Of a DNA stretch of 21,842 nt, positions 11,430-13,625 are shown piece after piece. The position numbers were made by a program, and so were the translations under genes. Below the pieces are notes generated by a model. The model saw nothing but the letters and a program-made list of their open reading frames with translations, was not told where the DNA came from and did not search any database. Position 1 is the stretch's first letter. Every line of letters begins with the position of its first letter. Origin of the DNA: an uncultured archaeon (GTDB taxonomy: Archaea > Aenigmatarchaeota > Aenigmatarchaeia > GW2011-AR5). Location of the stretch: the NCBI GenBank assembly GCA_964373695.1, contig CAYJVT010000014.1, positions 1 to 21,842 on the forward strand, given 5' to 3'.

Positions 11430-11516
11430 GCCCCGATAGCTCAGTTGGTAGAGCGACAGTTTCGTATGATATGCCGCAAGAACTGTAGGTCGTGAGTTCG
11501 ACTCTCACTCGGGGCT
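11430..11516 (+). tRNA. tRNA-Thr(CGT) with a 14-nt intron at 37/38
   Basis: Acceptor GCCCCGA/TCGGGGC, U73, D arm GCTC/GAGC, anticodon stem ACAGT/ACTGT, loop TTCGTAA after removing 11467-11480, T arm GTGAG-TTCGACT-CTCAC; CCA not encoded. Confidence 0.9.
11467..11480 (+). other. tRNA-Thr intron (relaxed BHB)
   Basis: TGATATGCCGCAAG; central helix TTCG/CGCA has 3 of 4 pairs. Confidence 0.8.
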
Positions 11517-11738
11517 CTTCTGTTTTGTGTCCTCTTCCCACCATTCGAGCCCGTAATTTCTTTTTTCCTCCTTCTTGGAATAGAGTATCATGACTATGGA
11601 AACGGCCGATATGAGAGGCGCCAGTATGAAGTACGTCATGAAGAACGGAATTACTATGCCTATGAAGCTGTCCAGATAAAGCGACAGGAAGAAGGACGCG
11701 AAGAACCCTATGCCGATGCCTCTTATGACGGATTGCAT
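11505..11738 (-). CDS. Hypothetical 2-TM membrane protein overlapping the tRNA-Thr 3' end
   Basis: Hydrophobic 77-aa ORF with TTTAATAA about 20-25 nt upstream of ATG; its last 12 nt are antisense to the tRNA. Confidence 0.65.
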   Translation of the reverse strand: MQSVIRGIGIGFFASFFLSLYLDSFIGIVIPFFMTYFILAPLISAVSIVMILYSKKEEKRNYGLEWWEEDTKQKSPE

Positions 11739-13327: not shown

Positions 13328-13341
13328 TGGGTTCGGGCGGA

Positions 13342-13372
13342 AAATCGGCCTGCGAGCGAAGCTCGCAAAGCT
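13342..13372 (-). other. tRNA-Val intron 3 (31 nt, position 59/60)
   Basis: Outer helix GGCGG/CCGCC, central helix TTCG/CGAT (one U.U), bulges AAA and TTT, intron hairpin GCGAGC-TTC-GCTCGC. Confidence 0.8.
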
Positions 13373-13389
13373 TTCGAACCGCCGGCCTT

Positions 13390-13416
13390 TTATGCCAAAG
13401 CACTTAAATACTTTGT
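13390..13416 (-). other. tRNA-Val intron 2 (27 nt, position 42/43, relaxed BHB)
   Basis: Central helix GTGC/GCAT, bulges AGA and AAA, intron helix CAAAG/CTTTG; outer exon helix weak. Confidence 0.75.
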
Positions 13417-13425
13417 CTGCACGTC

Positions 13426-13441
13426 AACTGCAACATCGCTT
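13426..13441 (-). other. tRNA-Val intron 1 (16 nt, position 33/34, strict BHB)
   Basis: Central helix CTGC/GCAG, bulges TTA and TTG, outer helix ACGT/ACGT, intron helix AGC/GTT. Confidence 0.85.
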
Positions 13442-13474
13442 AAGCAGACGTCATAGCCACTAGACTACGAACCC

Positions 13475-13508
13475 GTTTTAAATTTGTGATGTTGAAAACA
13501 TTAAAAGA
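13475..13508. promoter_or_regulatory. Overlapping divergent tRNA promoters
   Basis: 34-nt gap with TTTTAAAT (13476-13483, +) and TTTTAATG (13506-13499, -), each about 25 nt from the opposite tRNA 5' end. Confidence 0.6.
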
Positions 13509-13625
13509 GCATCCGTAATCTAATGGCAGGATTTCAGCTTCCCAAATGCCCTACGTTCTTCGAACGTATCGCATGCCATATTATGGAGATAGCTGATAAT
13601 GCGGGTTCGAATCCCGCCGGATGCA
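13509..13625 (+). tRNA. tRNA-Gly(CCC) with a 46-nt intron at 37/38
   Basis: Acceptor GCATCCG/CGGATGC, A73, anticodon stem TCAGC/GCTGA, loop TTCCCAA after removing 13545-13590, 4-nt variable loop, T arm GCGGG-TTCGAAT-CCCGC. Confidence 0.92.
13545..13590 (+). other. tRNA-Gly intron (46 nt)
   Basis: Central helix TTCC/GGAG; internal hairpin ATGC-CC-TACGTTC-TTC-GAACGTA-TC-GCAT. Confidence 0.85.

Follow-up and report, generated by a model that had tools for sequence, protein, structure and literature searches.

A tRNA-Val(GAC) Gene with Three Introns at Non-Canonical Sites in an Archaeon of the Aenigmatarchaeota, and the Variation of Its Intron Set among Related Species

Introduction

The closest described systems are the tRNA genes of the Thermoproteales, which include three-intron genes such as Pyrobaculum calidifontis tRNA-Glu(UUC) and P. 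islandicum tRNA-Pro(UGG); 59/60 and 20/21 are among the intron sites listed for this order, and introns are shared between isotypes, a pattern that was read as transposition (PMC4390854, PMC4090602). Most tRNA genes of the Asgard archaea carry interruptions, as many as five in a single gene; many of these genes escape standard annotation, and D-arm sites are common (bioRxiv 10.64898/2026.10.13.758758). For the DPANN, the available text of Kaneta et al. 2018 (PMC5829648) links a loop-bearing alpha4-type tRNA splicing endonuclease (EndA) to broad specificity and to a larger number of disrupted tRNA genes, and predicts that such genes await discovery in the DPANN that carry this enzyme. A full-text literature search found no gene-level account of tRNA introns in the Aenigmatarchaeota.

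Interrupted multi-intron tRNA genes are a known archaeal phenomenon, and the tRNA-Val(GAC) gene described here is a new example. It lies in a stretch of 21,842 nucleotides, called the window below. The genome of the window is designated G000, and two other species of the same genus G001 and G002.

Results

Anatomy of the Gene and Its Neighbours

The Val(GAC) gene occupied 147 nt of the minus strand and was flanked by a divergent tRNA-Gly(CCC) gene. The features of the window were as follows.

13328-13474, minus strand: tRNA-Val(GAC) gene of 147 nt in which three introns separate four exons, without encoded CCA
13442-13474, minus strand: exon 1, positions 1-33 of the mature tRNA (5′ half of the acceptor stem, D arm, 5′ half of the anticodon stem, then U32 and U33), placed by blastn-short with the mature sequence
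13426-13441, minus strand: intron 1 of 16 nt, at the U33/G34 junction, with a full hBHBh′ motif
13417-13425, minus strand: exon 2, mature positions 34-42 (anticodon GAC, G37, U38 and anticodon stem 39-42), placed by blastn-short
13390-13416, minus strand: intron 2, 27 nt, at 42/43, relaxed HBh′ motif
13373-13389, minus strand: exon 3, positions 43-59 of the mature tRNA (variable loop, 5′ half of the T stem, T loop to A59), placed by blastn-short
13342-13372, minus strand: intron 3 of 31 nt, interrupting the T loop at the A59/U60 junction, with the T stem as outer helix
13328-13341, minus strand: exon 4, positions 60-73 of the mature tRNA (U60, 3′ halves of the T and acceptor stems, discriminator A73), placed by blastn-short
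13475-13508, no strand: A+T-rich spacer of 34 nt from which the Val(GAC) and Gly(CCC) genes diverge, read from the sequence alone
13509-13625, plus strand: tRNA-Gly(CCC) gene, one canonical 37/38 intron of 46 nt (about 13545-13590) with BHB H4, h5, h′3
11430-11517, plus strand: tRNA-Thr(CGT) gene, one canonical 37/38 intron of 14 nt (about 11467-11480), from tRNA finders and the BHB

Excision of gene positions 34-49, 59-85 and 103-133 left a 73-nt product that ARAGORN identified as tRNA-Val(gac). In the predicted cloverleaf, the acceptor stem had 7 bp, the anticodon and T stems 5 bp each, and the D stem 3 bp followed by a U13-U22 apposition. The gene started with the 7-nt acceptor 5′ strand and finished with its complement and an A. 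The features expected of a valine tRNA were present: GAC at positions 34-36, a 7-nt anticodon loop with U33, U8, A14, the GG of the D loop, a TTCGAAT T loop and A73. The introns represented 74 of the 147 nt, and none was located at 37/38. The exons were collinear and contiguous on one strand within the 147 nt; the gene is neither split nor permuted. A reading of the plus strand was rejected, ARAGORN returning only Val when both strands of the spliced product were submitted. The strand, the exon and intron coordinates, the anticodon, the 73-nt cloverleaf with perfect acceptor, anticodon and T stems, and the proportion of intron, half of the gene with nothing at the canonical site, had been proposed in an initial annotation made from the sequence alone and were all recovered here. 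The same was true of its count of five introns across the three tRNA genes of the window (three in Val, one in Thr and one in Gly).

TATA-like runs were visible approximately 25-33 nt upstream of the mature 5′ end of the Val and Gly genes alike, and the 34-nt spacer between the two is probably a shared bidirectional promoter region.

Splice Motifs at the Three Boundaries

In the bulge-helix-bulge (BHB) motif, the two exon bases before the splice site and the single intron base after it form the 5′ bulge, and the four bases preceding this bulge pair with the intron bases at positions -5 to -2. The 3′ bulge consists of the two intron bases that adjoin the following exon together with the initial base of that exon. 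This register was scored at the boundaries set by the cloverleaf alone, and each intron was shuffled 100,000 times. Intron 1 showed a complete central helix H (4/4), in which positions 28-31 were paired with the intron sequence GCAG, an outer helix of 4 bp (24-27/35-38) and an inner helix of 3 bp; 209 of the 100,000 shuffled sequences reached this H and inner helix. In intron 2, the central helix was formed by positions 37-40 and the intron (4/4, with one G-U pair), the outer helix was lacking and the inner helix extended over 8 bp, a result reached by 3 shuffles in 100,000. The central helix of intron 3 was incomplete (3/4) owing to a U54-U mismatch. Its outer helix was the 5-bp T stem, its inner helix consisted of 4 bp, a 1-nt bulge and 6 bp more, and 540 of the 100,000 shuffles did as well. 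Alternative boundaries that leave the mature sequence unchanged (a shift of -2 or -1 for intron 1 and of +1 for intron 2) gave far poorer scores and were rejected. The view that each insert forms its own BHB-like motif held at all three sites, but the motif was complete only in intron 1. Since intron 2 lacks an outer helix and intron 3 carries a mismatch in the 4-bp helix, both need an enzyme of broad specificity.

The three BHBs and the acceptor, D and T stems could be accommodated in one nested structure, provided that the outer helix of intron 1 was cut to 2 bp; the full 4-bp helix overlapped two bases of the central helix of intron 2 and two pairs of the D stem. In the folding model, the all-BHB conformer had an energy of -48.4 kcal/mol versus -60.2 kcal/mol for the MFE structure, i.e., it was approximately 12 kcal/mol above. 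In the partition-function model, the cost of forming motif 3 was 1.2 kcal/mol in every context. Motif 2 cost 3.3 kcal/mol in the full precursor and 5.0 kcal/mol once intron 1 was gone, and motif 1 cost 6.0 kcal/mol in the full precursor and 4.7 kcal/mol once intron 2 was gone. Under this model, removal of intron 2 before intron 1 would be mildly favoured, motifs 1 and 2 would not be mutually exclusive, and intron 3 would be independent of both.

Orthologues and Variation of the Intron Set

Orthologues were searched for at the DNA level across 61 related genomes and read by spliced alignment to reference sequences. The exons of the G001 and G002 genes were identical to those of the window (73/73 in both). 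The G002 gene contained two introns, at 33/34 (16 nt) and 42/43 (30 nt). The G001 gene contained introns of the same sizes at these two sites, and a 53-nt intron in the D loop. The T loop was intact in both species, showing directly where intron 3 starts and ends.

Intron 1 shared 14 and 9 of its 16 positions with its counterparts in the congeners, and H4, h4 and h′3 were found in all three species; its site and its BHB scores were the same in G001, G002, G056 and G029. In the inner helix, the pairs differed between G000 and G001 and all three were still paired, which explains the constancy of the score. The helices of intron 2 similarly differed in sequence between species with pairing retained, and the length of the 42/43 intron was 27 nt in G000, 30 nt in G001 and G002, and 17 nt in G005.

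Eleven Val(GAC) orthologues were cleanly parsed: three had no intron, two had one, three had two and three had three. Each of the three-intron genes possessed a different set. The sites used recurrently in the family were the D-loop site 20/21, 33/34, 37/38, 42/43 and 59/60. Triple-intron tRNAs had been presented as a rarity in the initial annotation, which does not apply within this lineage, given these 3 out of 11 orthologues. The anticodon was the same in the orthologues, and the acceptor, anticodon and T stems covaried across genera among the eight distinct orthologue sequences, with double-sided changes at 4:69, 5:68, 6:67, 29:41, 30:40, 49:65 and 52:62.

The orientation of the locus was variable. 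The flanks were collinear between G000 and G001, and the Val gene in the interior had the opposite orientation (window 13328-13625 compared with L003, G001:C32); the break points corresponded to the ends of the Val gene, which are 7-bp inverted repeats formed by the acceptor stem. Compared with the YdjM-like gene upstream, the whole Val-Gly pair was inverted in G002 (L002, G002:C63). The spacer of L002 contained, about 50 nt upstream of the intact Val gene, a second copy of 13 nt of the Val 5′ end; this copy may be a footprint of the rearrangement. Val-Gly adjacency was also sought in other genera, and the two genes were neighbours within this genus only.

Intron 3 and the Family of T-Loop Introns

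Intron 3 belonged to a family of T-loop introns with common ends, AGC at the start and GGCCGATTT at the finish. The 59/60 members that matched it had the same length. The introns of the genus compared with it were as follows.

Leu(CAG), G001: 59/60 intron, 28/31 identical to intron 3
Pro(TGG), G001 and G002: 59/60 intron, 27/31 identical
Leu(CAG), G000: 59/60 intron, 26/31 identical
tRNA of unassigned isotype, G002: 59/60 intron, 26/31 identical
Val(CAC), G001: 59/60 intron, more distant
tRNA at C2:53467, G000: 59/60 intron, more distant

In other genera, the introns located at 59/60 in Val genes resembled intron 3 less closely, with 14-23 identical columns. The 3/4 central helix with its U-U mismatch was present in 12 of the 14 introns compared at this site, and the Leu(CAG) and Pro(TGG) introns were each kept in two species. 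The Leu(CAG) gene of G000 (G000:C44:4351-4463, plus strand), situated directly after Leu(TAG), also contained a D-loop intron and was reported neither by Rfam nor by ARAGORN.

In an alignment of nine members, 93% of the cells paired in the proposed structure and the three central pairs were invariant. The T stem and inner helix together contributed seven pairs with double-sided changes, including four within the inner helix. A covariance model built on this alignment matched in 13 of the 61 sampled genomes and found three copies in G000, five in G001 and two in G002; two of the five G001 matches had identical sequences, were both located at contig ends, and are probably one gene. One G001 copy was situated in the Gly(CCC) gene beside Val, as a 59/60 intron in the 3′ part of the gene (L003 624-674, G001:C32, minus strand). 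The Gly(CCC) gene of the window had an intact T loop without the family intron. Within the genus, the family intron was seen in Val(GAC) in G000 only, and in Gly(CCC) and Val(CAC) in G001 only.

The T-loop motif can work in any tRNA, as it is built only of the T stem and of universal T-loop bases, and the spread of the family over Leu(CAG), Pro(TGG), Val(CAC) and Gly(CCC) is what mobile introns would be expected to produce. We infer that intron 3 came recently to Val(GAC), copied from another tRNA gene; two independent losses, instead of a recent gain, are the alternative account of its distribution. It is possible, at slightly less than even chances in our judgement, that the tRNA genes of this genus are being remodelled at the time scale of species, intron 3 being a recent copy of an active T-loop family and the Val gene having flipped in place between the inverted repeats of its own acceptor stem. 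If this is true, the genus would be a natural system for catching the gain of archaeal tRNA introns, a process whose mechanism at the DNA level is, to our knowledge, not known.

Valine tRNA Genes of the Genome and Their Detection

The unspliced Val(GAC) gene was not called by ARAGORN in default or intron mode. It also gave no match to the Rfam tRNA model, whether at the gathering threshold, at E<=1 over the whole window or at E<=10 on a 501-nt slice. As a stand-in for the spliced sequence, a 70/73-identical intronless orthologue (L008) was scored on the Rfam tRNA model RF00005 and reached 71.1 bits. The two-intron gene of G002 scored 51.5 bits, and the three-intron gene of G001 was unreported, as in G000. 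The expectation that standard finders might miss the gene was borne out with both programs.

Whatever the anticodon, ARAGORN and Infernal detected no uninterrupted Val gene in the 1.02-Mb, 91%-complete assembly, and blastn-short with the mature sequence detected no second Val(GAC) copy in it. The initial annotation had envisaged a pseudogene in the event that an uninterrupted Val(GAC) gene existed elsewhere; the assembly yielded none. The GTY codons (GTT and GTC) accounted for 54.5% of the valine codons in 402 long ORFs.

The other Val isoacceptors were located with the sequences of relatives. Val(CAC) (G000:C2:27529-27614, minus strand) contained one D-loop intron of 13-14 nt and was miscalled Cys(aca) by ARAGORN. 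Val(TAC) (G000:C12:8324-8460, plus strand) contained a D-loop insert and a canonical intron of 51 nt. All three valine tRNA genes of G000 were interrupted. A 204-nt tRNA gene at C22:12971-13174 (minus strand) was considered as a second Val gene, its first 15 nt being as in Val, and was rejected, no Val anticodon arm being found in it. This gene possessed several BHB-supported inserts and had no unique parse, the anticodon being TTC, TCA or GTT depending on the cuts chosen. Its 5′ end recurred at C57:41-55.

ARAGORN and Rfam together yielded zero valine tRNAs for G000 (GAC missed, CAC called Cys and TAC not found), although the codons read by GAC represent more than half of the valine codons. 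Automated tRNA counts are consequently misleading for the Aenigmatarchaeota, and such counts feed the quality grades of MAGs and the claims of "missing tRNA" in DPANN.

The Splicing Machinery

A single EndA homologue of 194 aa was encoded in G000 (C2:46161-46742; L021 1222-1806, plus strand), with the domains PF01974 and PF02778. No second EndA subunit was found in this genome, even at E<=10. The nearest relatives of the protein, at 87-92% identity, were from groundwater MAGs of Candidatus Aenigmatarchaeota, in agreement with the initial guess of a DPANN host, and its best solved relative was the alpha4 enzyme of M. jannaschii (1a79). A basic insert of six residues, absent in 1a79, was situated just before the catalytic His and aligned without gaps to N. 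equitans NEQ205 (3iey_A). Judged by this alignment, the insert is the DPANN "L3" loop to which Kaneta et al. 2018 (PMC5829648) link broad specificity. Ala replaced the catalytic Lys (K156 in M. jannaschii) in G000, and this residue was Ala or Ser in 80 of 80 Aenigmatarchaeota EndA homologues, in which the loop Gly-Pro-Lys before the catalytic His was invariant. With Ala in place of the catalytic Lys, the chemistry of this EndA is not that of the textbook.

RtcB and an archaeal CCA-adding enzyme were also encoded in G000. The match to the RtcB profile was divided, with positions 1-51 and positions 48-426 separated by about 1.45 kb in a single open frame of 989 aa (G000:C31:6291-9113, plus strand), which suggests an intein inside the tRNA ligase.

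Discussion

The locus is very probably a functional tRNA-Val(GAC) gene, present in one copy in its Aenigmatarchaeota (DPANN) host, with three introns spliced by EndA. We propose that transcription of the minus strand would produce a precursor of about 147 nt, in which the lone alpha-type EndA with its L3 loop would cut both 3-nt bulges of the three BHBs, at 33/34, 42/43 and 59/60. RtcB would ligate the four exons and the CCA-adding enzyme would finish the 3′ end. For introns 1 and 2, the anticodon stem would have to open each time. Intron 3, whose motif uses the T stem and universal T-loop bases, would fold independently of the other two. Against this reading stand the energy of the all-BHB conformer, about 12 kcal/mol over the predicted minimum, the imperfect motifs of introns 2 and 3, the Ala at the catalytic position of the only EndA, and the 91% completeness of the assembly, whose missing part may harbour another copy.

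Several features of intron 3 could also mark a gene recently disabled or impaired: neither congener has this intron in Val(GAC), its central helix is limited to 3/4, and the gene is inverted relative to G001. The intron would then be a fresh insertion in this species only, its U-U motif would be cut poorly or not at all, and the locus would be a pseudogene in the making. We regard this as improbable: the same U-U 3/4 helix occurs in 12 of the 14 introns at 59/60, including those of Leu(CAG) and Pro(TGG) retained in two species each, and the helices covary. Moreover, the third BHB is predicted to form easily, at a cost of 1.2 kcal/mol in the model, another Val(GAC) gene was not found and the exons are unchanged.

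Two further readings appear less credible than the preceding one, to about the same extent. The choice of three deletions opens a large search space, in which a cloverleaf might be assembled from three freely chosen segments of a decayed pseudogene or tRNA-like remnant, and standard finders do not call the gene. The exon boundaries, nevertheless, are independently confirmed by orthologues that lack one or the other intron. The exons are invariant while the introns diverge, BHBs are found at the boundaries, and the stems covary across genera; we regard such a remnant as very improbable. Three independent assemblies agree on the exons, on their order and on shared intron sites, the flanks are collinear and the inserts carry splice motifs, all of which speaks strongly against a chimeric or mis-oriented contig mimicking an interrupted gene, an artefact suggested by the MAG source and by the different gene orientation in the congeners.

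With a functional three-intron gene as the preferred reading, the main interest of the locus resides in the intron polymorphism between species and in the T-loop family that intron 3 shares with other tRNA genes. The otherwise identical gene, with its three intron sets in three congeneric species, offers a tractable comparison for the gain and loss of tRNA introns. The three motifs, one full, one devoid of the outer helix and one mismatched, also provide natural substrates for testing a lone loop-bearing EndA without the classic catalytic lysine.

Among the known systems, the split and permuted genes of Nanoarchaeum equitans and Caldivirga rely on the same BHB endonuclease chemistry, the former in a small-genome archaeon, but the exons are collinear here. 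The Val(GAC) gene is a concrete case of the pattern that the available text of Kaneta et al. 2018 (PMC5829648) associates with the loop-bearing EndA of DPANN; that text gives no gene-level description for Aenigmatarchaeota and makes no mention of the replacement of the catalytic Lys. Asgard archaea have almost no intron families crossing isotypes (1.5% at 80% identity; bioRxiv 10.64898/2026.10.13.758758), whereas intron 3 behaves as in the Thermoproteales. The initial annotation held that triple-intron tRNAs are known mainly from Thermoproteales such as Thermofilum. This is corrected by the published three-intron examples consulted, which are from Pyrobaculum (PMC4390854), and by the Asgard archaea, for which up to five introns per gene are reported (bioRxiv 10.64898/2026.10.13.758758).

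Like its Thermoproteales counterparts, whose introns are mostly at non-canonical sites, the Val(GAC) gene has three BHB-type introns, and intron 3 is 26-28/31 identical to the 59/60 introns of Leu(CAG) and Pro(TGG); this sharing across isotypes was found for intron 3 only. The sites 33/34 and 42/43 are unnamed in the site list of the Thermoproteales review. The host, unlike the Thermoproteales, is a DPANN archaeon, and its enzyme is a single alpha-type EndA with the L3 loop instead of an (alpha-beta)2 enzyme with the crenarchaeal loop. The Val(GAC) gene would work as the multi-intron tRNA genes of the Thermoproteales do, in another phylum and with an endonuclease of another architecture.
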